This document shows positions 8,670-23,380 of a stretch of 64,000 nt of DNA, one piece after another. This stretch comes from Candidatus Saccharimonadota bacterium (lineage in GTDB: Bacteria; Patescibacteriota; Saccharimonadia; Saccharimonadales; Saccharimonadaceae): assembly GCA_017540545.1 (NCBI GenBank), contig JAFYAV010000002.1, positions 178,588 through 242,587 on the forward strand, given 5' to 3'. Position numbers and translations under genes: made by a program. How positions within the stretch are numbered: position 1 is the stretch's first letter; every line of letters begins with the position of its first letter. The notes beneath the pieces are model-generated. The model was given only the letters and a program-made list of their open reading frames with translations. It was not told the DNA's origin and ran no database searches.

Positions 8670-8696
8670 CTATGTTACTTATGTTAAACTTATAGC

Positions 8697-9998
8697 ATGG
8701 ATAGCTATAAGCGACCATTCCGTGGTTCGAAAATCTACACCCGCAAAAAGACCAAAAACGACAACGCGCTCGTTAATCTCTATAAGGAAAGCGAATTTTC
8801 GGAAGAGGAAGCTAAAGCGGACATCGATAATTTTCTTGACGAATCCGACGAAGTTAACGAAGAGGATGTTCCAGTCAAAAAATCAGTCAAAAAAGAACGC
8901 AAAAAGGCTCACGAAAGAGAAGAGCGGCAACGACGCGCAAAAAGCGCCTTCGGCAAGATTTTTGCAGCCATTATCCTGATTGCCATAGTAGTTTTTGGTG
9001 CACTATTCTTTTTTAGGCCATCTTTCACTGAAAATGTCGCCGACGAGACCAAAACAGAAAACGCCATCGCCGACAAAATCTATTATTCGCCACTTACGGG
9101 CCTAGAAAGTACCAACGAAAAGATATCTACCGCCGAAGCTACTTGCATTATGATCGAAAACAGCGTTGACGCTCGTCCGCAATCTGGCCTAACTGCAGCG
9201 GGCGTCGTTTATGAGGCCGTGGCCGAAGGTGGTATCACGCGTTTTATGGCCGTCTATCAAGATGAACTACCTAGTTGGGTAGGCCCAATTCGCTCCGCTC
9301 GTCAAACTTTCGTCCATTTATCTCGCCAATACAGCTGCGGATACGTACACGTTGGCGGCGCCGCAAACACCACTAGCACGCTCGGCAGTAATGGATACCG
9401 CAACCTAGACGGTGGCTACTATGAAGGTCAATATGTTTTCCGAATATCAAGCCGTTATGCGCCGCATAACGTCTATACCGATGCCCAACATCTCAAAGAG
9501 TGGAGCAACAACAAAGGTTGGCGCGAATCAAAGTTTACCGGATTTAAGCGCATCAAGCCCGACACATCAGTCGAACCCGAAAAACGTAATGCGACCACTA
9601 TTACGGTCACCATGTCCGGAGATAATAGCTATAACGCTAGCTGGAAATATAACGCCAATACCAATAAATACGCCCGCTCCCACGTCGCTGGCGGCGCACA
9701 TATGGAGAGCACTAAAAGCGGCCAACAAAATCAAATCACCACTGATGTCGTTATAGCAATGAAGACTAGCACCGTCACTCGCCCAGGAACCCTCTTCTAC
9801 GACCATACAACTACCGGCTCCGGCGAAGCCTACATCTTTCAAAATGGCGTCGTCCGCAAAGCCACTTGGCGTCGCGCTAACGTAACCGACGAGCTTGGCT
9901 TTTATGACGACGAAAACAATGCCATCGAATTAAATCGTGGACACACTTGGATAAGTATTTACAATAATACAGCCGGCGGACACGTCAGTTGGAAATAG
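8697..9998 (+). CDS. DUF3048 (YerB-like) membrane-anchored protein
   Basis: Basic N-terminus, one TM, then IENSVDARPQSGLTAAGVVYEAVAEGGITRFMAVY signature of DUF3048. Confidence 0.75.
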   Translation: MDSYKRPFRGSKIYTRKKTKNDNALVNLYKESEFSEEEAKADIDNFLDESDEVNEEDVPVKKSVKKERKKAHEREERQRRAKSAFGKIFAAIILIAIVVFGALFFFRPSFTENVADETKTENAIADKIYYSPLTGLESTNEKISTAEATCIMIENSVDARPQSGLTAAGVVYEAVAEGGITRFMAVYQDELPSWVGPIRSARQTFVHLSRQYSCGYVHVGGAANTTSTLGSNGYRNLDGGYYEGQYVFRISSRYAPHNVYTDAQHLKEWSNNKGWRESKFTGFKRIKPDTSVEPEKRNATTITVTMSGDNSYNASWKYNANTNKYARSHVAGGAHMESTKSGQQNQITTDVVIAMKTSTVTRPGTLFYDHTTTGSGEAYIFQNGVVRKATWRRANVTDELGFYDDENNAIELNRGHTWISIYNNTAGGHVSWK

Positions 9999-11568: not shown

Positions 11569-13176
11569 ATGTACACTAACGATAAAATTCTCGTCGGCAA
11601 ATCCGACAAACAAGAACTGTCAATTCTCTTAAATATGGCTAATCGCCACGGACTCATCACGGGCGCTAGCGGCTCCGGCAAAACTATTACCCTCAAAGTA
11701 ATAGCCGAAAGCTTCTCCGATGCTGGCGTACCAGTTTTCCTCGCCGATGTTAAAGGCGATCTTGCCGGCACGGCCGTCGAAGGCGAAATGAACGAAAACG
11801 TCCAGAAACGCGTCGACCAACTCGATCTTAAAAAATATGGCTTTGAATGCAAGAAATTCCCAGTCCGTTTCTGGGATCTTTACGGCGAAAACGGCCACCC
11901 AATTCGCGCCACTATCGAATCCGTCGGCCCAGACGTACTCTCGATGATGCTTGGTCTATCCGAAGCTCAGGAGGGCAATCTAGACATCGTCTTTGAAGTC
12001 GCCAAGGATGAAGGTTTACAATTAATCAATCTCGCAGATCTTCGCTCGACGTTGCAATATGTCGCCGAAAATAAAGACAAATACATCACCAAATACGGCA
12101 ATATCACTACGCAAAGCGTTGGCGTCATCCAGCGCAGCCTGCTCGCACTAGAAAAGCAGGGCGCAGACAAGTTCTTCGGAGAGCCCGCGCTAGACATTCA
12201 AGACTTTTTCGCAAACGACACCGATGGTCGCGGCATGATTAATATCCTTCACGCGGTCGAGCTATTCCAGAGCCCAGATTTATATGCCTCATTCCTGCTC
12301 TGGCTACTCAACACGCTATTCGTCACCTCGCCAGAAGTTGGCGATTTGCCGAAGCCCAAAATCGTCTTCTTCTTCGATGAGGCGCATCTGCTATTCAATG
12401 GCATGCCCGCCTATCGTCTCAAAAGAATCACTCAGGTGGTTAAGCTTATTCGCTCGCGCGGCATCGGTCTATACTTCGTCTCACAGAAGCCGACCGACAT
12501 CCCTGACGATATTCTCGCCCAACTTGGCAACCGCGTCCAACATTCGCTCCGCGCCTATACGCCAACCGAGCTTAAAGTCGTAAAGGCTGCCGCCGGCGCC
12601 TTCCGCGCCAACAAAGCCTTTGATACCGAAAAGGCCATTTCTGAACTAGGCACTGGCGAAGCGCTCGTATCCTTCCAAGACGAAAAGGGCACTCCAACCA
12701 TCGTGGAGCGAGTCACGATTCTGCCGCCGCAAAGCTCCATGGGAACCATCGACGATATAACTCGTAATCGCATAATTAATAACAGCAGCCTATGCGGCAA
12801 ATACGACGAGGCTATCGATAACGAGACCGCCCACGAGAAAATCTCTAAGCACAACGAAGAAAAAGCTACGGCCGCCGAAGAGGAACGCAAGCGCATCGAA
12901 GCCGAAAAGCAGGCCGCAAAAGAAGCTAAAGAGGCGGAAAAGCAAGCCAAAGAAGCCGAAAAACAGGCCAAAGCCGAGGAGCGCGCCAGAACACTAGAGG
13001 AAAAACAAAAAGCCGCTCTCGAACGCGAAAAAGCCAAGCTCGAAGAAAAGAAAAAGGCTAATAGCCTTGGTGGTAAAATCGAGAAAACCGTCACCACCGG
13101 CGTTCAACGTGGCGTCACTAACGCTATCTCTAGCACAATATCCAAAACGCTCAGGGGCATATTTAAGTTTAAGTAA
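11569..13176 (+). CDS. HerA-like / DUF853 family P-loop NTPase with Lys/Glu-rich tail
   Basis: NRHGLITGASGSGKTITLKVIAE Walker A, IVFFFDEAHLLF Walker B; C-terminal EAEKQAKEAEKQAK-type repeats. Confidence 0.8.
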   Translation: MYTNDKILVGKSDKQELSILLNMANRHGLITGASGSGKTITLKVIAESFSDAGVPVFLADVKGDLAGTAVEGEMNENVQKRVDQLDLKKYGFECKKFPVRFWDLYGENGHPIRATIESVGPDVLSMMLGLSEAQEGNLDIVFEVAKDEGLQLINLADLRSTLQYVAENKDKYITKYGNITTQSVGVIQRSLLALEKQGADKFFGEPALDIQDFFANDTDGRGMINILHAVELFQSPDLYASFLLWLLNTLFVTSPEVGDLPKPKIVFFFDEAHLLFNGMPAYRLKRITQVVKLIRSRGIGLYFVSQKPTDIPDDILAQLGNRVQHSLRAYTPTELKVVKAAAGAFRANKAFDTEKAISELGTGEALVSFQDEKGTPTIVERVTILPPQSSMGTIDDITRNRIINNSSLCGKYDEAIDNETAHEKISKHNEEKATAAEEERKRIEAEKQAAKEAKEAEKQAKEAEKQAKAEERARTLEEKQKAALEREKAKLEEKKKANSLGGKIEKTVTTGVQRGVTNAISSTISKTLRGIFKFK

Positions 13177-14865: not shown

Positions 14866-15543
14866 TTAGCTATTGCGTAATTCTTTAATTCTATTAATAA
14901 TCTTAGCCATATCTGTAAAACGTTCTGACGCCTTATCGAACTTTATCTTACAGAACCCCTCGACTAAGTCCTTATTATAATCAAGTAGCTTACCAAAGAA
15001 GGTAGGTACTGCATAGTGCCTCTTCGAATATTTGGGAATCATCATTCCGTCCGAGAAACCTTTCTCGATATTAGAAGCGTTAATAGTTTCTGCGGCTGCA
15101 TTGATGGCATTTTCGTAGTTGGACGGCGATTCGGCTACAGCCACGTCTAGACCGGCCAATAACGCCAAGACGAAGAATTCGAAATTCGGTCTATTAATAA
15201 CTAGCTCGTAGCCGGCTTCATGTACCATTATTTCGAACTCTTCAAGAATAACGCCATGCTTCTCCATGTAATCGTAGTCGCATACCAACCATTTTTCTAG
15301 GTTATCTCCATTGGAAAAATCGCATAAGGGTCCGTCCGTCCTCTTTTGAAACCCCAAATCTAATGCTTCATTGGCGGCTTCAATTATCTTATTATGCCCG
15401 TGAACACCATTTAGCGGCACGGGCACGACAGCAACACTTGCGCCACTCTGGTTAATTGATTGACCACTAAAAGCCCTGTCTAACTCCCTAATAAAAGCAG
15501 GTTCGCTATTTTCGCCTTCAGTACATATAGCTAGATACAACAT
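14866..15543 (-). CDS. RloB-like (Toprim-related) protein, AbiLii-like
   Basis: N-terminus LYLAICTEGENSEPAFI matches the RloB hallmark (CEGe.tEp.Y); start overlaps the ATPase stop (TAATG). Confidence 0.7.
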   Translation of the reverse strand: MLYLAICTEGENSEPAFIRELDRAFSGQSINQSGASVAVVPVPLNGVHGHNKIIEAANEALDLGFQKRTDGPLCDFSNGDNLEKWLVCDYDYMEKHGVILEEFEIMVHEAGYELVINRPNFEFFVLALLAGLDVAVAESPSNYENAINAAAETINASNIEKGFSDGMMIPKYSKRHYAVPTFFGKLLDYNKDLVEGFCKIKFDKASERFTDMAKIINRIKELRNS

Positions 15544-16718
15544 TACAATCTCACATTTGGCGTTGCGCCTAGCAAGCCTTTATTATATTTTCTCTCAATT
15601 GAGACGTCGTCATTTCTTATATAATTTGGCGCTGTTTCTATTTTTGATTCTTCATTATGATTCTTGCTTACAAAACGGATATTTTCTTTACCTAGCTGGT
15701 TCTGCAATTGAGTACAGTGGGTATTTACTATTAATTGAGCTTTCTTACTATTGTTCTGATCTTCAAACAGCTTTGCAAGCAACTTGCATTCCACCGGATG
15801 TAGATTATTTTCAAACTCATCTATGTATAATATCTTTCCATTCTCTATCGTATCGAGGAGAGGGTAAGCCATGTCGAAGAACCGCTTCGTGCCAGTGGAT
15901 TCATGCGCCGCGAGATCAAATTTCTTAACGCCGGAAACCACACCGTTCTCGTCATGAATTACGTGCAATGTAGAAACCTCATAGCTCTTTCTGTCCATAT
16001 TGGCCTTAAACTCTTCGGTAAATGGCAAATCCTTATAAAATTTTTCTGGCAATTCCACCGTAGACACTACAAGGTCTTGGATAGACATATCTGCACTGCG
16101 TAGAAGCTCAAGAACTTTTTGCTTGAAAGCAGAATCTTCCATAGTTTTTTTAGCAGTCAAAGCCGTGAGCTGTTCACCACTGATTAGATTGAAATTATTT
16201 AACCAATCGAAAACATCTTTTGCGTATTTATTATTGTCTTCCCATGCCTTAGTCAGCACTAATGCGTCTGGGCGCGTACGCCTTAATAGGTCATTGCTAA
16301 AGCCTTTCTCGGCATATCTGTCTTCTTTATTCATAGAATTACGGCGGAAAACCGTTTCAAAACTGGAATCTTTTTTATTACGAACTTTTAAATACTCATC
16401 TTTAACTGCGCCCAATAGCAACGAAAAGCCATATCGATATACTTTGTCATCATTTTCCATTTCCGCTTCAAAACAAGTAGGGTTCTTTCCGGCAGATGTG
16501 CTAAGTAAAAAATCCTCATATCGCATTACTTGTCCTTCGAAACGAGTAGACATGCGAATAAAATCTCTATAAAACATCATTGCTTTAAAGAGATTAGTTT
16601 TACCGGCACCGTTAGGGCCATATATTGCGGTGACATTCTTAGGTCCATCGCTAAATTCTATCTTTTGAGAGTCCTTAAAAGACCTATAGTTGGTCACACT
16701 AAAGTTACGCAGCCTCAT
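15543..16718 (-). CDS. AAA_21/ABC-type ATPase, AbiLi/RloA-like
   Basis: MRLRNFSVTNYRSFKD...AIYGPNGAGKTNLFKAM Walker A; YIDEFENNLHP Walker B/D-loop; NTHCTQL. Confidence 0.8.
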   Translation of the reverse strand: MRLRNFSVTNYRSFKDSQKIEFSDGPKNVTAIYGPNGAGKTNLFKAMMFYRDFIRMSTRFEGQVMRYEDFLLSTSAGKNPTCFEAEMENDDKVYRYGFSLLLGAVKDEYLKVRNKKDSSFETVFRRNSMNKEDRYAEKGFSNDLLRRTRPDALVLTKAWEDNNKYAKDVFDWLNNFNLISGEQLTALTAKKTMEDSAFKQKVLELLRSADMSIQDLVVSTVELPEKFYKDLPFTEEFKANMDRKSYEVSTLHVIHDENGVVSGVKKFDLAAHESTGTKRFFDMAYPLLDTIENGKILYIDEFENNLHPVECKLLAKLFEDQNNSKKAQLIVNTHCTQLQNQLGKENIRFVSKNHNEESKIETAPNYIRNDDVSIERKYNKGLLGATPNVRL

Positions 16719-17801: not shown

Positions 17802-17999
17802 ATGAAATATACAATCACGATAGAAGAAACGTGCACAAAAGACTTCGATATTGAAGCCGAAAGCGCCGAAGAAGCCTGTGAAATAGCTGAACAAAACTAT
17901 AAATCAGGCGAGTTTGTCCTAGACCCAGGCGAGCGTCAGTTTAAGCAAATAGCTATTGCGACACCGAGTGATGGAACTACAGAATGGCGAGAGTTTTAG
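17802..17999 (+). CDS. DpnD/PcfM-like small acidic protein
   Basis: 65 aa; MKYTITIEETCTKDFDIEAESAEEACEIAEQNYKSGEFVLDPGE resembles the DpnD/PcfM family seen in R-M cassettes and conjugative elements. Confidence 0.5.
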   Translation: MKYTITIEETCTKDFDIEAESAEEACEIAEQNYKSGEFVLDPGERQFKQIAIATPSDGTTEWREF

Positions 18000-20137
18000 A
18001 TTTCTTGAATTCCGAGACTCTTTAGATACTCGTACGTTCCGTCGTAGAATTCAGGCAGGCGTGTACTATCTTCCCAAAAACCATTCGGAGATTTATTCTT
18101 ATTCCCCTCAGGAACACAAATAATCATACCGGCACGAGCGCGCGTAAGTAATACGCGATACGCATTCAGCATATACTTCTGTTTTTCGCGATTATTCTCA
18201 GTTCTTCCGAGTTGCTCGATCCATTTCGTATTACCATTAAAGGAGTAATAATGCCATCTTCCATTCTCGTATCGCATATCCGCATCCCAAAGTAGGCAAG
18301 TATAATCTAGTTCAAGGCCCTGCACCTGAATCTCCGTCGCAGCGTCTTCAAGATAGTTTGACGAACGCGTATCAGTTTTATCTTCTAGGAACCAATGAAC
18401 GGCATTTTCGTCGCCGGACGGCAAAATATGAATTGCTAGCGGTTTAAATCGCGCCGCTTCTTTAGTGACGAGTACGCCAGTGCGCTCTGTCCCTCTAGCT
18501 TTTTCGTGTAGCCATTTTCGCGCTTTAGCCATGTCACGAGTTAATAGAATAGGATATTTATCCTTTATTTCGTCATACAGCTCCGCAGCATTATCATCAA
18601 AAGCGAGCAGAGAGTGAACGAAAGCAGATACTTTTTCGGAACGATATGAACGGAGCGAGACGCTTAGATGTAAATTATTCGAATACGTTACATTCGGATT
18701 ATCGGCCAAAAGCTCATTAACTTTGCCCTCGGCATATTCCGGTTCAGTCAGCTCTGGGGAGATATAAACATTCCAGTGACGATACTTTTCATTAAGGGCT
18801 TTTATCCACTCAGAGATACCCGCTTCGCCGGTATTAATTTCTTGACCACCGCCAACTAGACAAACAATAACTGCCCAGTCCCTGCGTTGGTCAAGCGACC
18901 AAATCAAGAAAGCTGCTTCTGACATCGGAAAATTCGGAACTTTGAGTTTATTACCGTATGTTCCACCGCGTTTTAAGTAATTGGCGAGCCTTTCATGCGT
19001 CCACGAGCGCTGCGCTTCATCGAATATAGCGACATGTTCAACCTCGCCAAAGCCAGATGCGCCCATTTCGACGGCCTTATTTGGATCTATCTCTAGAACG
19101 CCGTTCTCGACTGGATTTTTAATTTTCGCGAGCATATTATCGCGATAGCGATGAATCATCTGAATAGATTTACGAACTTCGCGACGAGAATCAGTAAGCT
19201 TCTTCTGTTCGCCACGCGCCTTTGCTTTTCTGAAATTATCCTGCGCTAAAGCCTCATTTAAAACTGCCACAAGTGGCCCATTTCCAGATAAATATACTGC
19301 TCCGTCATCTTTTGCCGGATCGTTAGAACCATCACGATACGTTTGTTTAATTGCTACATCTAGACCAACCAATGTCTTGCCGGCGCCAGGAACGCCCGTA
19401 ACGAAACAAATGCTTTTCTTTCCATTCTTCTCACTATCCTGAATGACATCTAGGATGTATTGAATCGTTCTTTCTGTAGAAACATTATCCGCTTCATGAC
19501 GAGTGATATCTTCCACTGAATGATTTTCGTATAGCAAACGAGCCGCTTCGATAATTGTTGGAGTAGGAGCATATGGGCTAATTGACCACCTCTCGTCAAC
19601 CGGCATCTCGTCTGGATAAGCACCTAATACATTTTCAATTACATTACTGAGCTCGTTACTGTTCGAAACAAGCGGATTTATAACCTTGTCATCATAGACG
19701 GACATTTGAACTTGTGTCGAATAATTTACATAATTCGTAGCGACAAGAATAGGTGCGATGATTTTGTCTTCGCTAAATTTATGGAAGTTCTTTAAATCTA
19801 GCGCGTAGTCGAAGACTTGATCGATATCGGCCTCCAAAATATTGGCTTGGCCAACCTTAAACTCGATACAGAAAATGATGCCGCGATAAAGCAAAACTAC
19901 ATCTACGCGCTTACCTAAACGCGGGATATTATATTCGAATATTATGCGCCCGCTTTTATCATTCAACCTTGCCACAATATTGCGCATGACCAGTATTTCT
20001 TCCTTCCATGCGTCGACTTGTGTCGTCTGTACTTGCCCATTATAGTTTTCAACAAGAATTCCCATAATAGACCTTTCGTCATTGTCTAGGAAGCCACATA
20101 AATCGTTTTCATATAGACAGCGAGGACTCTTATTCAT
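17996..20137 (-). CDS. PD-(D/E)xK nuclease + DUF2075/Schlafen-type SF1 helicase protein (copy A)
   Basis: N-terminal FEYNIPRLGKRVDVVLLYRGIIFCIEFKVGQ (E..D..E.K core); Walker A FVTGVPGAGKTLVGL; Walker B VAIFDEAQRSW; motif VI-like VLLTRARAGMIICV; 713 aa. Confidence 0.8.
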   Translation of the reverse strand: MNKSPRCLYENDLCGFLDNDERSIMGILVENYNGQVQTTQVDAWKEEILVMRNIVARLNDKSGRIIFEYNIPRLGKRVDVVLLYRGIIFCIEFKVGQANILEADIDQVFDYALDLKNFHKFSEDKIIAPILVATNYVNYSTQVQMSVYDDKVINPLVSNSNELSNVIENVLGAYPDEMPVDERWSISPYAPTPTIIEAARLLYENHSVEDITRHEADNVSTERTIQYILDVIQDSEKNGKKSICFVTGVPGAGKTLVGLDVAIKQTYRDGSNDPAKDDGAVYLSGNGPLVAVLNEALAQDNFRKAKARGEQKKLTDSRREVRKSIQMIHRYRDNMLAKIKNPVENGVLEIDPNKAVEMGASGFGEVEHVAIFDEAQRSWTHERLANYLKRGGTYGNKLKVPNFPMSEAAFLIWSLDQRRDWAVIVCLVGGGQEINTGEAGISEWIKALNEKYRHWNVYISPELTEPEYAEGKVNELLADNPNVTYSNNLHLSVSLRSYRSEKVSAFVHSLLAFDDNAAELYDEIKDKYPILLTRDMAKARKWLHEKARGTERTGVLVTKEAARFKPLAIHILPSGDENAVHWFLEDKTDTRSSNYLEDAATEIQVQGLELDYTCLLWDADMRYENGRWHYYSFNGNTKWIEQLGRTENNREKQKYMLNAYRVLLTRARAGMIICVPEGNKNKSPNGFWEDSTRLPEFYDGTYEYLKSLGIQEI

Positions 20138-20529
20138 TTTTTAAGTTCCTTAATTACGACCTCGTCGGCAGGAAGCCAGTTGATAGAGTCGAGCTCATCG
20201 CGATGGAGCCACTTGGCCGCATCGTGCTCCTTAAGCGTTAAGGTACCACTTTTCACCTTCGCCAGGAAGCAGTCCATGCTTAAATGAAAACTTAGGTAAT
20301 CATACTCTACTGTACATAGTTTGTCGCCTACATTAATCTCCGTGTCGAGCTCTTCTATAATCTCGCGGCGAAGTGCTTTTTCCGGAGTCTCTCCCGCTTC
20401 AATCTTTCCTCCCGGAAACTCCCAATACCCCTTCCATTCTCCGTAACCTCTTTGGGTGGCAAAATATTTATCGCCATCAGCTATAATGGCAGCTACGACT
20501 CGAATTGTTTTATTCGTGGAGCTCATCAT
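20134..20529 (-). CDS. NUDIX (MutT-like) nucleoside-triphosphate pyrophosphohydrolase
   Basis: Nudix box GGKIEAGETPEKALRREIIEELD; stop overlaps the start of helicase copy A (ATGA). Confidence 0.85.
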   Translation of the reverse strand: MMSSTNKTIRVVAAIIADGDKYFATQRGYGEWKGYWEFPGGKIEAGETPEKALRREIIEELDTEINVGDKLCTVEYDYLSFHLSMDCFLAKVKSGTLTLKEHDAAKWLHRDELDSINWLPADEVVIKELKK

Positions 20530-20636
20530 TATTCTTGATTAGATCTTATCATAAAACATGCAAAAACTTAGGATGGCAGGGGGGATAAGTACGTGCTTGC
20601 GCTTTCGGTTTTTTCGATAGTTGCTTTAATTAATAT

Positions 20637-21146
20637 ATGAGTTTATTTCAGGAATTCCAAAATCACGAAAAACTGCTCGGTCGAAGAAAACTTGAGGCTA
20701 TGGATTTTTATATTTTAAATATCAAAAAGAACCTGAAATACGAAGAAATCATTTATAATAAACGCAATTTTGAAGAGTTTGAACACTGGTATTATTCATC
20801 TTATCTACAAGATAAGTGTTACAATCGTAGCATGGACGAAGTTAGTAAAGCTGTCGTGGATTTTACGCACGAACGAGATTGGGACCAGTTTCATTCGCCA
20901 GAAAATTTAGCGAAGTCTATTGCTATTGAATCGGGCGAACTTCTTGAATGTTTTCAATGGAATTCTAACTTTGACAAAAAAGAAGTCTGTAAAGAACTAG
21001 CCGACGTCGTAAACTATAGCATCCTCTTAGCAAACAAGCTTGGCGTGAGACTCGAAGACATTGTTATGGAGAAGTTAAAAGAAAACTGTAGAAAATATCC
21101 GGTCGAAAAAGCCAAAGGTAAAAGTACGAAATACACAAAGCTATGA
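20637..21146 (+). CDS. MazG-like all-alpha nucleotide pyrophosphohydrolase
   Basis: FTHERDWDQFHSPENLAKSIAIESGELLECFQW ... ELADVVNYSILLANKLG; the family-sized core starts at the internal ATG 20832 (104 aa), so the 20637 start may be an over-extension; stop overlaps helicase copy B (ATGA). Confidence 0.8.
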   Translation: MSLFQEFQNHEKLLGRRKLEAMDFYILNIKKNLKYEEIIYNKRNFEEFEHWYYSSYLQDKCYNRSMDEVSKAVVDFTHERDWDQFHSPENLAKSIAIESGELLECFQWNSNFDKKEVCKELADVVNYSILLANKLGVRLEDIVMEKLKENCRKYPVEKAKGKSTKYTKL

Positions 21147-23023
21147 TAGTTTACCAAGACACGAAGAAACAATTTCAGGCCGATGTCGACTTAAACCAGA
21201 TCGTCGACAAGATCAATAACGAGTATATACCTCGTTTTGGACATACGACAGAGTCGCAGCTCCGCGCTTGGAAAAATTCCATGCAGTATATGCATAATGT
21301 ACTCAATACGGGCGAAATCCCAGACGATGCCGGCGTAGCAATAGAATATAATATCCAGCCAACGTCTAAACGAATCGACTTTCTTTTATCTGGCAAAGAT
21401 GAAAACGGAAACCTAACGGCAATTATTGTCGAATTGAAGCAGTGGGAAAGCTGTGAAGCAGTTCGCGACGAAGATGGCGTAGTTGAAACTTTTGTGGGCG
21501 GAGGCAATCGCAAGGTTGCGCATCCAAGCTACCAAGCAATGAGCTACAAGCATCTCATTCAGGATTACAACGAGGCAGCACAAGAAGGACCAGTATATCT
21601 TTTCCCGTGCGCATTTCTACATAACTACCGCATCACTCCAGAGGATCCGATAGTTGACCCACAATATGACGAATACCTCAAAGAAGCACCCGTATTCGGC
21701 GCGAATGATTTCGAAAAGCTTCGGAACTTCATTAAAAATCATCTATCTACCGGCGATAAAGGCGAAACGATTTTTAAGATTGAATATGGTCGAATTCGTC
21801 CATCTAAGATGCTTCAGGATTCTATTGTGCGAATGCTTCAAGGCAAGAAAGAATTCGTCTTAATTGATACACAGAAAATAGTATACGAGCACGCAAAACG
21901 CATAGCTCGAAAAGCCGAATTTGATAACAAGAAGCACGTATTAATCGTAAAAGGTGGTCCAGGCACCGGCAAAACAGTCCTAGCAATTAATTTACTCTCG
22001 GACTTTCTAAATGAAAGCTTGTCAGCATTTTATGTCACGAAGAACCAGGCGCCTCGCGCCGTATTTAAACAAAAACTAAAAGACGGCGGCTTCAAGAATG
22101 TATTCATCGACACCCTGTTTCAAAGCTCTGGAAGTTTTATCGACTCAGTAACAAACGGAATTGACGTCTTATTAGTTGACGAGTCGCACCGTTTGAATGA
22201 AAAATCAGGAATGTTCTCAAATAAGGGCGAGAATCAGACAAAAGAAATAATTAATGCCGCCAAGTTCTCTATTTTCTTTATAGATGAGGCACAGAGAGTC
22301 ACGTTAAAAGATAAAGGCACGATTGCCGATATAAAGAAATTTGCATCCGAACAGAACGCTGAAATAGAAGAAATAGAACTTGATAGCCAATTCCGCTGTA
22401 ATGGCTCAGATGGATATTTGGCATGGCTAGACAATTTACTCGAAATTCGCGAAACCGCAAATGCAAATAGTCTCGAATACGATTACGACTTCCGCGTCTT
22501 TGATGATCCGAACGAATTGTACGACGCAATTGTTAAGCGGAATGATAATAATAAAGCCCGTATGGTTGCTGGCTATTGTTGGGATTGGGTTAAGGCTGGT
22601 CAAAATAATACCGATGTCCTAGATATTACAATTCCAGAATTTGGCTTTGCAAAGAGCTGGAACTTAGGAAATACTTCAACTTGGGCTATAGATCCAGAAT
22701 CTATCGAACAAATTGGTTGTATTCATACCTGCCAAGGGCTTGAGTTCGACTACGTAGGCGTAATTATAGGAGACGATATGCGTTATGAGAATGGCAGAAT
22801 CGTAACAGACGCCACTAAGCGCGCAAAAACCGACTCGTCGCTCAAGGGTCTCAAGAAATTAATTGCCGAGGATCCTGACGCTGCGGAAGAAATTGCGGAC
22901 AAAATCATTAAGAATACGTACCGCACGCTCATGACACGAGGAATGAAAGGTTGCTATGTCTATTGCACTGATACATCGCTTGCGGAATATTTAAAAGCGA
23001 GTCTCGCAAGGCTTAATAAATAA
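21143..23023 (+). CDS. PD-(D/E)xK nuclease + DUF2075/Schlafen-type SF1 helicase protein (copy B)
   Basis: IEYNIQPTSKRIDFLLSG...TAIIVELKQWE nuclease core; Walker A VKGGPGTGKTVLAINL; LLVDESHRL and FFIDEAQRV; YRTLMTRGMKGCYVYC; 626 aa. Confidence 0.8.
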   Translation: MIVYQDTKKQFQADVDLNQIVDKINNEYIPRFGHTTESQLRAWKNSMQYMHNVLNTGEIPDDAGVAIEYNIQPTSKRIDFLLSGKDENGNLTAIIVELKQWESCEAVRDEDGVVETFVGGGNRKVAHPSYQAMSYKHLIQDYNEAAQEGPVYLFPCAFLHNYRITPEDPIVDPQYDEYLKEAPVFGANDFEKLRNFIKNHLSTGDKGETIFKIEYGRIRPSKMLQDSIVRMLQGKKEFVLIDTQKIVYEHAKRIARKAEFDNKKHVLIVKGGPGTGKTVLAINLLSDFLNESLSAFYVTKNQAPRAVFKQKLKDGGFKNVFIDTLFQSSGSFIDSVTNGIDVLLVDESHRLNEKSGMFSNKGENQTKEIINAAKFSIFFIDEAQRVTLKDKGTIADIKKFASEQNAEIEEIELDSQFRCNGSDGYLAWLDNLLEIRETANANSLEYDYDFRVFDDPNELYDAIVKRNDNNKARMVAGYCWDWVKAGQNNTDVLDITIPEFGFAKSWNLGNTSTWAIDPESIEQIGCIHTCQGLEFDYVGVIIGDDMRYENGRIVTDATKRAKTDSSLKGLKKLIAEDPDAAEEIADKIIKNTYRTLMTRGMKGCYVYCTDTSLAEYLKASLARLNK

Positions 23024-23303: not shown

Positions 23304-23380
23304 TGGTGATCCCGGAGGGAGTCGAACCCTCGATTTTCTGGATGAGAACCAGACGTCCTAGACCACTAGACGACGGGACC
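23304..23380 (-). tRNA. tRNA-Glu (anticodon CUC), CCA encoded
   Basis: Reverse complement GGTCCCGTCGTCTAGTGGTCTAGGACGTCTGGTTCTCATCCAGAAAATCGAGGGTTCGACTCCCTCCGGGATCACCA folds as a cloverleaf; anticodon loop TTCTCAT. Confidence 0.95.

Follow-up and report, generated by a model that had tools for sequence, protein, structure and literature searches.

Why should a nuclease-helicase gene be coupled to a nucleotide pyrophosphohydrolase gene, twice in one locus and with hydrolases of unrelated folds? The question was raised by two divergent operons in a 64 000-nucleotide stretch of a Candidatus Saccharimonadota contig (the window), for which the initial annotation had proposed a functional two-gene module rather than chance adjacency.

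Gene layout and domain content

The four open reading frames were confirmed from the ORF list and translations of the window; positions, divergent order and junctions were all as first described. On the minus strand, a NUDIX pyrophosphohydrolase (131 aa; 20134..20529) precedes a 713-aa nuclease-helicase (A-type; 17996..20137), and on the plus strand a MazG-like ORF with an N-terminal extension (169 aa; 20637..21146) precedes a 626-aa nuclease-helicase (B-type; 21143..23023). Stop and start codons overlap as ATGA in both pairs (20134-20137, minus strand; 21143-21146, plus strand), for which co-transcription and translational coupling are the best explanation. The divergent spacer (20530..20636), earlier put at about 100 bp, measures 107 nt if the 169-aa MazG ORF is accepted; it is kept in Saccharibacteria relatives, contains the near-palindrome TGATTAGATCTTATCA (20536-20551) and may act as a promoter region.

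A DpnD/PcfM-like gene (65 aa; 17802..17999, plus strand; PF14207 at 4e-13) is convergent with the A-type gene and overlaps its 3' end by 4 nt. It accompanies the module in relatives, with its position kept in loci L009-L014, and its membership of the module is uncertain. The AbiL-like system noted in the island was recovered (14866..16718, minus strand), with an AbiLi ATPase of 391 aa (PADLOC, 1.3e-64; Pfam AAA_21) and an AbiLii/RloB protein of 225 aa (PADLOC, 7e-07; Pfam RloB); it is context, a system separate from the two hydrolase modules. GC content is 0.39-0.42 at 13-24 kb and 0.45-0.49 in the flanks, and a tRNA-Glu(CTC) gene (23304..23380, minus strand; ARAGORN) marks the edge of this low-GC island.

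Both large proteins consist of a PD-(D/E)XK nuclease and a DUF2075/Schlafen-type SF1B helicase and are Nhi-like in architecture. All motifs quoted beforehand were present in the translations (EYNI..KR[VI]D..[IV]E[FL]K; GVPGAGKT/GGPGTGKT; DEAQ/DESH; LLTRAR/LMTRG; and the Nudix box), and the Pfam search returned PF09848 in both proteins, besides NUDIX and MazG-like PF12643 in their partners. The A-type protein matches the PADLOC PDC-S41 HMM over its full length (9.7e-247, 818 bits) and its homologues number over 8000, with 74-81% identity across phyla. Its helicase domain (18110..19417, minus strand) was delimited by Pfam (PF09848, DUF2075/SLFN-g3 helicase, aa 241-676, 5e-68) and by invariant columns, with Walker A at 246-255, DEAQ at 373-376 and motif VI at 663-668. 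The nuclease core (about aa 60-130; 19748..19960, minus strand) was assigned from conservation, HMM and model: E68, E92 and K94 are invariant and D79 is more than 90% conserved in 56 diverse representatives, the AbiO HMM of PADLOC aligns to aa 31-264, and there is a weak NERD match. Where the AF2 model is confident in its N-terminal part, it resembles chain M of two McrBC entries (presumably McrC), Hjc and restriction-endonuclease-like folds; the top two matches reach prob 0.98, with weak E-values.

The B-type protein matches PF09848 at 1e-103, and its PADLOC matches are all partial (AbiO 1e-16, Nhi 2.6e-15, PDC-S41 2e-18). Foldseek placed its AF2 model (pLDDT 80.7) closest to SLFN11, the Dna2 nuclease-helicase, RecD2, Upf1 and Dda. 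The nuclease core (21320..21622, plus strand), likewise assigned from conservation, HMM and model, carries E68, D79, E97 and K99, invariant both among 45 homologues and throughout alignment A2; it coincides with a weak REase_MTES_1575 match (aa 62-111) and a predicted core of beta-sheet and helix (aa 64-159). Judged by BLASTP (2e-06 over 77 aa, plus a second N-terminal segment), the A- and B-type proteins appear only distantly related, in keeping with the earlier view of strongly diverged proteins sharing one architecture. Domain searches for a modified-base reader in either protein gave no DUF3427, SRA, EVE or PUA match.

The partner enzymes have unrelated folds, as had been proposed. The NUDIX protein (Pfam, 9e-18; PADLOC PDC-S07, 164 bits) carries the Nudix box GGKIEAGETPEKALRREIIEEL, whose residues are invariant in 16 partner NUDIX proteins. 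Its best matches are NTP hydrolases of the MutT/NudG/3GWY type, with 43.9% identity to Bacteroides fragilis Q5LBB1 (3GWY); the NCBIfam MutT and NudG models all scored under their cut-offs. The MazG-like core (104 aa; 20832..21146, plus strand; PF12643 at 4e-17) is of the all-alpha DCTPP1/RS21-C6 type, these being its best solved relatives (8e-17, 41% identity). Its metal-binding E/E/E/E/D residues are at least 95% conserved in 62 partners, and PADLOC returned nothing meaningful for it (two marginal matches at E about 0.01). The small domain fused to its N-terminus (65 aa; 20637..20831, plus strand) was delimited by alignments and HMM search and has no Pfam match. In relatives it forms its own 53-aa ORF about 25 nt 5' of MazG; the HMM search gave 5 fused cases, window included, and 18 separate ones. 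Because the extension is kept in frame in diverged relatives and occurs as a separate ORF elsewhere, the 169-aa reading of the MazG gene is supported.

Conservation of the pairing

Neighbourhoods were sampled at 80 A-type and 80 B-type independent loci. A NUDIX gene directly adjoins 14 of the 80 A-type genes (17.5%; 12 downstream, 2 upstream), and 24% have NUDIX or MazG within 1.5 kb. MazG directly adjoins 40 of the 80 B-type genes (25 upstream, 15 downstream) and lies within 1.5 kb in 53 (66%). Clustering of the neighbours gave 17 members for NUDIX (among them two free-standing methyltransferases and two fusions of NUDIX and methyltransferase) and 48 for MazG, every other cluster having 2-4, so that no other operon-like neighbour of DUF2075 genes comes near the hydrolases in frequency. 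Gaps between hydrolase and helicase elsewhere are mostly -34 to +25 nt, and the short spacing holds whichever gene comes first and across many unrelated contexts. In the reverse test, all 13 places that hold MazG relatives had a DUF2075 gene 2-4 nt downstream; a GIY-YIG-DUF2075 variant among them has exchanged its nuclease domain but keeps MazG. Hydrolase-DUF2075 adjacency is far beyond chance, and the proposed module was borne out. The suggestion that one partner role had been supplied twice also gained support from cross-combinations (MazG beside A-type genes in L056, L032, L098 and L066; NUDIX beside a B-type gene in L110), which amount to evolutionary interchange.

The pairing is not obligatory, as it had been described. 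The hydrolase is missing from most A-type loci and roughly one in three B-type loci, including whole clades and some plasmids, which indicates that the nuclease-helicase works without it. Nor is the NUDIX family dedicated to DUF2075: the surveyed adjacency extends beyond this genome, but NUDIX relatives also adjoin SauUSI-like and HsdR-like enzymes. Phage genomes seldom carry the genes (1 and 4 of 50,697 records), which fits host or mobile-element defence.

Role of the hydrolases

On viral contigs, the closest NUDIX relatives lie 3-30 nt downstream of genes for proteins with PLD nuclease, SF2 helicase and DUF3427, which is the SauUSI architecture; NUDIX proteins beside SauUSI-like genes are 59-70% identical to that of the window. 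In a neighbour-joining tree (about 130 residues, without support values), DUF2075-linked and SauUSI-linked NUDIX genes intermix within one clade, which fits a function without specific protein contact. DNA containing 5mC or 5hmC is the substrate that SauUSI cuts, and a NUDIX gene is linked to no fewer than 60 SauUSI-like genes (PMC3141236; PMC7641849); this linkage was described in 2011, its function being left "to be examined" (PMC3141236). Restriction persisted after deletion of a SauUSI-linked NUDIX gene (PMC3312211), in keeping with the role of an accessory and not of an effector. DUF2075 NTPases have also been noted beside DUF3427-type modification-dependent enzymes (PMC6765204). Some MazG/B-type modules contain or adjoin Mrr_cat, GmrSD or DUF3578 genes, such type IV-related domains being a small minority of neighbours (Mrr_cat 3/87).

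The nearest characterised homologues of both hydrolases act on 5-substituted dCTP. The B. fragilis enzyme has a kcat/Km of 4-7e6 M-1s-1 for 5-Me-CTP, 5-Me-dCTP and 5-hydroxymethyl-dCTP and is far less active on canonical NTPs (PMC5158307); DCTPP1/RS21-C6, and likewise E. coli Orf135/NudG, are described as hydrolases highly specific for 5-methyl-dCTP (PMC10742078). The window hydrolases probably destroy modified cytosine nucleotides, by extrapolation from homologues at 41-44% identity, a distance at which Nudix specificity can change. Among the roles first listed, modified-NTP hydrolysis and self-protection fit the evidence best; dNTP depletion and signal degradation fit less well.

We favour, at roughly even confidence, a reading of the region as two restriction modules of Nhi-like type, each with an accessory enzyme that removes 5-modified dCTP from the nucleotides available. 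The helicase-nuclease would load onto invading DNA and degrade it; the hydrolase would stand outside the cutting machine and act on the nucleotide pool, turning 5-methyl- or 5-hydroxymethyl-dCTP from degraded foreign DNA or an infecting phage into the monophosphate. Modified cytosine would be kept out of the host chromosome, so that the host would not become a target of a nuclease acting on modified or abnormal DNA, and phages building 5mC/5hmC DNA would lose a precursor and stall in replication; the benefit may be host protection, starvation of such phages, or both. NUDIX and DCTPP1-like MazG would then be non-homologous enzymes recruited to one job, and the two modules, which tend to travel together, probably differ in target or substrate range. 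Since no reader domain was found, modification dependence of the DUF2075 nucleases stays an inference, and for Nhi the reported targets are replication intermediates of phages rather than modified DNA (bioRxiv 10.1101/776245). The recurring partnership may explain how such nucleases spare the DNA of their own cell.

The same modified-dCTP chemistry could serve another biological role. As an offensive effector, the hydrolase would deplete canonical or phage-specific dNTPs (hm-dCTP), and stalled forks would be destroyed by the Nhi-like partner. Such a role is rather unlikely, although Nhi has been proposed to degrade phage-specific replication intermediates (bioRxiv 10.1101/776245), the NUDIX family is by itself enriched in defence islands (PDC-S07, detected without PDC-S41 in S. 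thermophilus), and homologues are specific for 5-Me/5-hm-dCTP (PMC5158307; PMC10742078): homologues are far less active on canonical dNTPs (PMC5158307), and deleting the SauUSI-linked NUDIX gene did not relieve restriction (PMC3312211). An effector of this kind would, moreover, touch only phages with modified cytosine. Both families also include enzymes acting on alarmones or dinucleotide polyphosphates, and tight translational coupling would suit toxin/antidote-like stoichiometry, as would the toxicity of AbiO at high copy number. A regulator that degrades a signal ((p)ppGpp, Ap4A, a cyclic or linear oligonucleotide) or lowers ATP/dATP locally, holding a toxic nuclease-helicase off until infection, is nevertheless improbable: the nearest characterised relatives are 5-substituted dCTP hydrolases, the sampled neighbourhoods contain no conserved cyclase gene or other gene that would make a signal, and the NUDIX gene swaps freely among unrelated partners.

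It is a little more doubtful still that PDC-S07 NUDIX, MazG and DUF2075 genes are independent single genes for defence or house-cleaning, grouped together in defence islands and nothing more. PADLOC does treat PDC-S41 and PDC-S07 separately, many DUF2075 genes lack a hydrolase and NUDIX occurs without DUF2075; yet overlaps of 4 nt and gaps no longer than about 25 nt recur in both orders and many unrelated contexts, hydrolases form the only large neighbour clusters, DUF2075 genes adjoin MazG relatives at all 13 places, and NUDIX without DUF2075 is still tightly coupled to another nuclease-helicase. Least probable by far is RppH-like processing of nucleic-acid ends, from 5'-triphosphate to 5'-monophosphate, for loading of a 5'-3' SF1B helicase-nuclease. 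The helicase resembles Upf1 and Dna2, and NCBIfam RNA pyrophosphohydrolase models match the NUDIX protein weakly (3e-07, far under cut-off), but its best matches are NTP hydrolases, and DCTPP1-type MazG enzymes are known to act on free nucleotides only.

Comparison with known systems

In the literature searched, neither a link between DUF2075 and NUDIX or MazG nor a named two-gene system of hydrolase and DUF2075 nuclease-helicase was found. The parts are already catalogued: the A-type and NUDIX proteins fall into PDC-S41 and PDC-S07, two unrelated single-gene candidates of PADLOC. PDC-S41 was not mentioned in the literature searched, which also yielded no experimental validation of either. Their linkage and the MazG/B-type module are absent from the catalogue, whereas the SauUSI-NUDIX linkage has been known since 2011 (PMC3141236).

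DCTPP1/RS21-C6, NudG and B. fragilis 3GWY share fold and catalytic motifs with the window hydrolases. They are housekeeping or structural-genomics proteins without a known nuclease link, whereas the window genes lie in defence operons, and the Saccharibacteria MazG carries the extra 65-aa domain. Nucleotide-pool enzymes used against phages include the dNTP-depleting dCTP deaminase and dGTPase; their folds are unrelated to those of the window hydrolases, and they work singly on canonical dNTPs, with no nuclease-helicase partner.

In SauUSI-type type IV enzymes the nuclease is of the PLD type, the helicase belongs to SF2 and DUF3427 reads 5mC/5hmC, where the window proteins have PD-(D/E)XK and SF1B DUF2075 domains and no detectable reader; what the two systems share is a NUDIX gene, of one orthologous group, in tight linkage with the nuclease-helicase. 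Closest in architecture are the anti-phage proteins Nhi (S. epidermidis SERP2475), "Nhi-like" (Millman et al. 2022) and lactococcal AbiO, which share the N-terminal PD-(D/E)XK nuclease, the DUF2075 SF1B helicase and the setting in defence islands and mobile elements. Similarity to the Nhi HMM is low (18.6 bits for A-type; 54 bits, over part of the protein, for B-type), and these systems are described as single genes without a hydrolase, whereas each window protein has its coupled NUDIX or MazG partner.

Organisation of the two divergent gene pairs

Four ORFs were called at the locus: the A-type nuclease-helicase gene (17996-20137, minus strand, 713 aa) with its small partner, the NUDIX gene (20134-20529, minus strand, 131 aa), and a MazG-like ORF (20637-21146, plus strand, 169 aa) followed by the B-type nuclease-helicase gene (21143-23023, plus strand, 626 aa). 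These calls agreed exactly with the ORF positions of the initial annotation, and the ATGA stop/start overlap described for each small-to-large junction was seen in the sequence. The predicted domains were recovered by a Pfam scan (PF09848 in each large protein; NUDIX and PF12643 in the small ones), and the AbiL-like neighbour proposed for the island was identified as an AbiLi ABC-type ATPase with AbiLii/RloB (PADLOC, 1.3e-64 and 7e-07; Pfam AAA_21 and RloB).

The AbiL-like pair shares a low-GC stretch with the four module genes (GC content 0.39-0.42 versus 0.45-0.49 in the flanks), bordered by a tRNA-Glu gene (23304-23380). Just outside this island lies the gene for a 535-aa P-loop protein with a C-terminal lysine/glutamate-rich repeat (..KEAKEAEKQAKEAEKQAKAEE..; 11569-13176, plus strand). 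The best protein matches were 97-100% identical and were assigned by NCBI to Candidatus Saccharibacteria. The GC skew was below zero in all 2-kb windows over the 64 kb (minimum -0.35); the whole region is thus part of a single replichore and contains no skew switch.

A DpnD/PcfM-like gene (17802-17999, plus strand, 65 aa) is convergent with the A-type gene, with whose 3' end it shares 4 nt; its position is kept in all close relatives (L009-L014), where a YjbR-family gene comes after it. The divergent spacer holds a near-perfect 16-bp palindrome, TGATTAGATCTTATCA (20536-20551), just upstream of the NUDIX start. The palindrome is kept among Saccharibacteria relatives and could serve as an operator; in contrast to these loci, a small HTH gene was found upstream of the A-type gene in the Firmicutes loci L001-L008.

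Domain composition of the nuclease-helicases and their partners

A-type protein: The protein matched PF09848 (DUF2075, "Schlafen group 3 helicase") at 5e-68 in Pfam. In an alignment of 56 diverse representatives of the A family, E68, E92 and K94 were invariant and D79 was conserved in more than 90%, a pattern that constitutes a PD-(D/E)XK signature; the Walker A and DEAQ motifs and the arginines of motif VI were also kept. The window protein itself qualified as a PD-(D/E)XK nuclease, and the AbiO HMM spanned its aa 31-264. By using PADLOC, it was placed in the single-gene phage-defence candidate family PDC-S41 (9.7e-247, 818 bits; aa 6-713 aligned with profile positions 3-653 of 657). Neither the Nhi nor the AbiO family HMM was matched over the full length (Nhi 18.6 bits, aa 236-264 only; AbiO 20.7 bits). 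The AlphaFold model was poor overall (pLDDT 59.6), the input alignment being shallow (77-97% identity), and the confident N-terminal domain alone was used for Foldseek. Matches were weak, with chain M of two McrBC entries first, followed by Hjc resolvases and restriction-endonuclease-like folds; from the chain length and the "stalkless mutant" entry, chain M is probably McrC.

B-type protein: PF09848 was matched at 1e-103 (Pfam), and E68, D79, E97 and K99 were (nearly) invariant across the family, so that the PD-(D/E)XK nuclease assignment holds here too. The AlphaFold model was good (pLDDT 80.7), and its top structural matches (human SLFN11, the Dna2 nuclease-helicase, RecD/RecD2, Upf1 and Dda) were SF1B helicases. 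Full-length matches to the Nhi or AbiO HMM were absent here as well; the partial matches reached 54 bits for Nhi (aa 252-421 aligned with 192-332 of the 470 profile positions) and 58.6 bits for AbiO. Membership of PDC-S41 was rejected, the match being partial and at 2e-18.

Long B-type forms (785-823 aa) carry a C-terminal Peptidase_S24 (LexA/UmuD-like) domain (L175:1368-3833, L182:1784-4141, L185:1401-3872), and two loci have S24 as a gene of its own (138 aa) between the MazG and B-type genes (L122:3563-3979, L128:3569-3985). RecA/DNA-damage-linked control of the B-type nuclease-helicase is thus possible. At another locus, a 440-aa reverse-transcriptase (RVT_1) gene occupies this place (L137:2692-4014), and an A-type gene is present in the same locus.

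Comparison of the two large proteins: The similarity between A-type and B-type was remote (BLASTP 2e-06 over the C-terminal helicase motifs, with a second segment at the N-terminal EYNI..KRxD), and both contain the Walker A, Walker B and motif VI elements of a DUF2075 SF1B helicase. A relaxed scan of the N-terminal regions of both gave sub-threshold NERD and MTES_1575 matches among nuclease domains. No Pfam domain of a modified-base reader (DUF3427, SRA, EVE/PUA, McrB-N etc.) was detected in either protein, the relaxed N-terminal scans included; the linkers (aa 130-240 in A-type, aa 160-260 in B-type) carry no domain assignment. A PDB sequence search with the large proteins yielded nothing useful.

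NUDIX partner: The protein scored 65 bits against PF00293 (cut-off 21), has an intact Nudix box (GX5EX7REUXEEXGU) and was placed over its full length in the PADLOC candidate family PDC-S07 (3.7e-49). Residues G40, G41, E44, E47, R55, E56, E59 and E60 were invariant in 16 partner proteins. The nearest solved relative is Bacteroides fragilis Q5LBB1/3GWY (2e-28, 44% identity). In a screen of 74 substrates, this enzyme reached kcat/Km values of approximately 4-7e6 M-1s-1 on 5-Me-CTP, 5-Me-dCTP and 5-hydroxymethyl-dCTP, with far lower values on canonical NTPs (PMC5158307).

MazG partner: PF12643 was matched at 62.6 bits, above the gathering score (cut-off 27); the metal-binding ExxExxE...ExxD motif is present, and its acidic residues were at least 95% conserved in 62 partners. 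Catalytic residues are thus kept throughout both hydrolase partner families. Among solved structures, the MazG core came closest to dCTP pyrophosphatase 1 of mouse and human (RS21-C6/DCTPP1; 8e-17, 41% identity). Both DCTPP1/RS21-C6 and E. coli Orf135/NudG have been cited as highly specific 5-methyl-dCTP hydrolases (PMC10742078). PADLOC gave no meaningful match to MazG. A start of the ORF at the internal ATG 20832 was rejected for this genome because the 65 upstream codons (20637-20831) encode a small conserved domain with the motif MS[IL]..[ED][YF]..H...LG....A.D.Y....Y...YN...FE.F, which had no Pfam match. Its counterpart in other Saccharibacteria-type loci (L019-L021, L108, L192-L201) is a separate 53-aa ORF, located upstream of a 104-aa MazG at a distance of approximately 25 nt, which makes the domain a lineage-specific third component.

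Linkage and exchange of partners in other genomes

A-type loci were sampled as one genome per species (80 loci, 44-81% identity) and covered Firmicutes, Bacteroidota, Kiritimatiellia, Spirochaetes, Planctomycetota, Acidobacteriota, Proteobacteria and a Methanobrevibacter MAG. NUDIX directly adjoined the A-type gene on the same strand in 14/80 loci (12 downstream, 2 upstream) and lay within 1.5 kb in 17/80, the corresponding figure for MazG being 4/80. These adjacency counts were obtained with a clean NUDIX model; a first iterated HMM had picked up a methyltransferase domain through fusion proteins, so that methyltransferases of approximately 200 aa were mislabelled. When the 125 operon-like neighbours of A-type genes were clustered, NUDIX formed a cluster of 17 members (two of them stand-alone methyltransferases, two others NUDIX-methyltransferase fusions) and MazG one of 4, all others having at most 2. 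NUDIX was absent from the distant clade of A-type loci at approximately 45% identity, and ten unusually long A-family representatives contained no fused NUDIX or MazG domain.

Among 80 metagenome contigs with B-type genes, MazG was the direct neighbour in 40 (25 upstream, 15 downstream) and lay within 1.5 kb in 53, mostly with gaps of -34 to +25 nt; its neighbour cluster had 48 members versus at most 4 for any other. The same pairs were found in mouse-gut elements, at a prophage end, in Bacilli chromosomes and on Priestia and Marivirga plasmids, and solitary relatives without a hydrolase on, for example, a Methanosphaera plasmid and Bacillus cereus plasmids. The pairing, which had been presented as seemingly obligatory, is thus real and recurs in independent contexts but is facultative; it is strong for MazG/B-type and moderate for NUDIX/A-type. 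We are highly confident that the pairs are true functional modules in which a nuclease-helicase is the effector and a nucleotide pyrophosphohydrolase the accessory.

Searches in the reverse direction started from the hydrolases. For three MazG relatives (77-80% identity), a DUF2075 gene started 2-4 nt after the MazG stop in 13/13 places shown. In L202-L204 (e.g. L202:3001-5097), a 113-aa MazG-like gene directly precedes a 583-aa GIY-YIG + DUF2075 protein; here the nuclease domain has been replaced and the MazG partner retained. Scans of the viral collection with a single NUDIX or MazG protein returned 1-3 loci only, and an alignment-based scan was needed. None of 80 NUDIX relatives on IMG/VR contigs had a DUF2075 gene within 3.5 kb. 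The closest of them (59-70% identical) lay 3-30 nt downstream of genes for large PLD nuclease + SF2 helicase + DUF3427 proteins, and two others adjoined HsdR-like proteins. The PLD + helicase + DUF3427 architecture is that of SauUSI, which belongs to the type IV enzymes and cleaves 5mC/5hmC DNA (PMC6765204). A conserved MutT/NUDIX gene adjoins sauUSI and at least 60 SauUSI-like genes, its function having been left to be examined (Xu et al. 2011, PMC3141236); its deletion did not abolish restriction (Monk et al. 2012, PMC3312211), and the link was also recorded by Bell et al. (2020, PMC7641849). In a neighbour-joining tree of NUDIX proteins, built without support values, DUF2075-partnered and SauUSI-partnered genes were intermixed, which implies that partners were switched repeatedly within a single NUDIX group.

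Both pairs together: Divergent A and B pairs were found in close Saccharibacteria relatives (L009-L013), and tandem pairs in other Saccharibacteria (L192, in the order NUDIX-A-MazG-B; L195; L196) and, in further orders, in a Lachnospiraceae genome (L042) and two metagenome contigs (L137, L153); in the Methanobrevibacter MAG L033, A and B are convergent and lack hydrolases. The recurrence of these two rare genes together exceeds chance, and could reflect complementary specificities or plain clustering in defence islands.

Further genes in the islands: Some loci encode a fusion of NUDIX with a class I SAM-dependent methyltransferase (Methyltransf_25/11, TehB-like; L043:6179-7192, L066:7071-8084, L153:1857-2840), which stands alone in others (fused and stand-alone forms also in L041, L042, L136, L163 and L179). 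An HNH_4 endonuclease protein of approximately 390 aa regularly follows the methyltransferase beside A- or B-type DUF2075 genes; the two genes hint that further chemistry, on nucleotides or in DNA modification, is encoded in these islands. In the Firmicutes integrative element of L001-L008, the A-type/NUDIX pair precedes an AAA_17/adenylate- or cytidylate-kinase-like gene (8691-9233, 180 aa), another nucleotide-metabolism gene in the operon, after which come a 506-aa protein without an assigned family and an HNH_5 protein. The Priestia plasmid NZ_CP083270 (L025, 685-5866) carries, in this order, a restriction endonuclease, MutT, a DUF3578-domain protein whose gene overlaps the next, a MazG-like protein, B-type DUF2075 and a type I R-M system, so that both kinds of pyrophosphohydrolase occur in one island. 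The A-type protein is 66-81% identical among Saccharibacteria, many Firmicutes and Bacteroidota, Kiritimatiellia, an Alphaproteobacteria MAG and the archaeal Methanobrevibacter MAG (L027-L084, e.g. L033, L039, L048), which indicates that the gene has recently spread by horizontal transfer, and widely, within the communities of gut and rumen, errors of MAG binning being possible.

Proposed function and relation to known systems

Architecture, conserved catalytic sites, operonic linkage and partner exchange, all demonstrated here, were combined with the properties of characterised homologues. At 41-44% identity to Q5LBB1, NudG and DCTPP1/RS21-C6, the window NUDIX and MazG proteins are predicted to be pyrophosphatases of 5-substituted dCTP. 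Two unrelated folds at the same genomic position would thus supply one chemistry, by which the pool is cleared of 5-substituted dCTP. The nuclease-helicase would degrade invading DNA; the hydrolase would act on free nucleotides and keep modified dCTP from being incorporated, and the host chromosome would be spared the mark or defect on which such nucleases act. Phages that make 5mC/5hmC DNA may be starved of precursor as well. An accessory, pool-level role fits the findings that NUDIX is dispensable for restriction by SauUSI, serves three unrelated classes of nuclease-helicase and is missing beside many DUF2075 genes. Taken as a whole, this combination of nuclease-helicase and clearance of 5-modified dCTP is the best explanation, and we consider the odds that it is correct to be even. 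Counted against it were the view that Nhi targets replication intermediates, the failure to detect a modified-base reader in A or B, and the distance (41-44% identity) over which substrate specificity was extrapolated. The kinship of A and B with type IV enzymes is one of association, through the NUDIX partner common to SauUSI-like enzymes. Type IV domains were occasional neighbours (e.g. Mrr_cat, 3/87), and a Pfam census of the non-hydrolase neighbours of B-type genes gave no strong enrichment; no contextual proof of modification dependence is therefore claimed.

A more far-reaching reading, regarded as rather unlikely, is that self/non-self discrimination is enforced at the dNTP pool: A, B and SauUSI-like nuclease-helicases would attack modified or aberrant DNA and carry a dedicated pool-immunity enzyme (NUDIX or DCTPP1-like MazG). 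The 5-modified-dCTP pyrophosphatase, supplied convergently by two folds, would then have the protective role of the methyltransferase in classical restriction-modification, and PDC-S41-type and B-type DUF2075 proteins would be modification-dependent restriction enzymes of a new class.

If the best explanation, clearance of 5-modified dCTP beside a nuclease-helicase, is right, two separate single-gene candidates of a defence database would become one defined two-component module, joined by a sister module of MazG and B-type DUF2075 that is uncatalogued and occurs very widely (thousands of homologues in bacteria and some archaea). It would also answer a question open since 2011, namely why SauUSI-like enzymes keep a NUDIX gene unneeded for restriction, and would suggest as a general principle that nucleases reading modified DNA may need nucleotide-pool hygiene for the safety of the host. 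The recruitment of two unrelated folds for this hygiene would have its parallel in what DCTPP1 has been proposed to do in mammalian cells. The kinship with human Schlafen helicases is of comparative interest. In practice, phage therapy and DNA transformation could be influenced by these modules, which are common among Saccharibacteria and the bacteria of gut and rumen.

No description of DUF2075 pairings or of a very tight MazG/DCTPP1-like + DUF2075 module was found in the literature searched, nor of non-homologous NUDIX/MazG replacement, NUDIX partner switching or a unifying modified-dCTP hypothesis. The parts themselves are already known: Nhi-like nuclease-helicases, the PDC-S41 and PDC-S07 candidates and pool-sanitising pyrophosphatases; the link of NUDIX with a nuclease-helicase is published for SauUSI. 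Nhi, AbiO and "Nhi-like" proteins, described as single-protein nuclease-helicase defences, have in common with A and B an N-terminal PD-(D/E)XK nuclease and a C-terminal DUF2075 SF1B helicase. A and B share this architecture with Nhi and AbiO but fall outside those sequence families; on the strength of the architecture and the partial database matches, Nhi, AbiO and "Nhi-like" proteins are the closest characterised kind.
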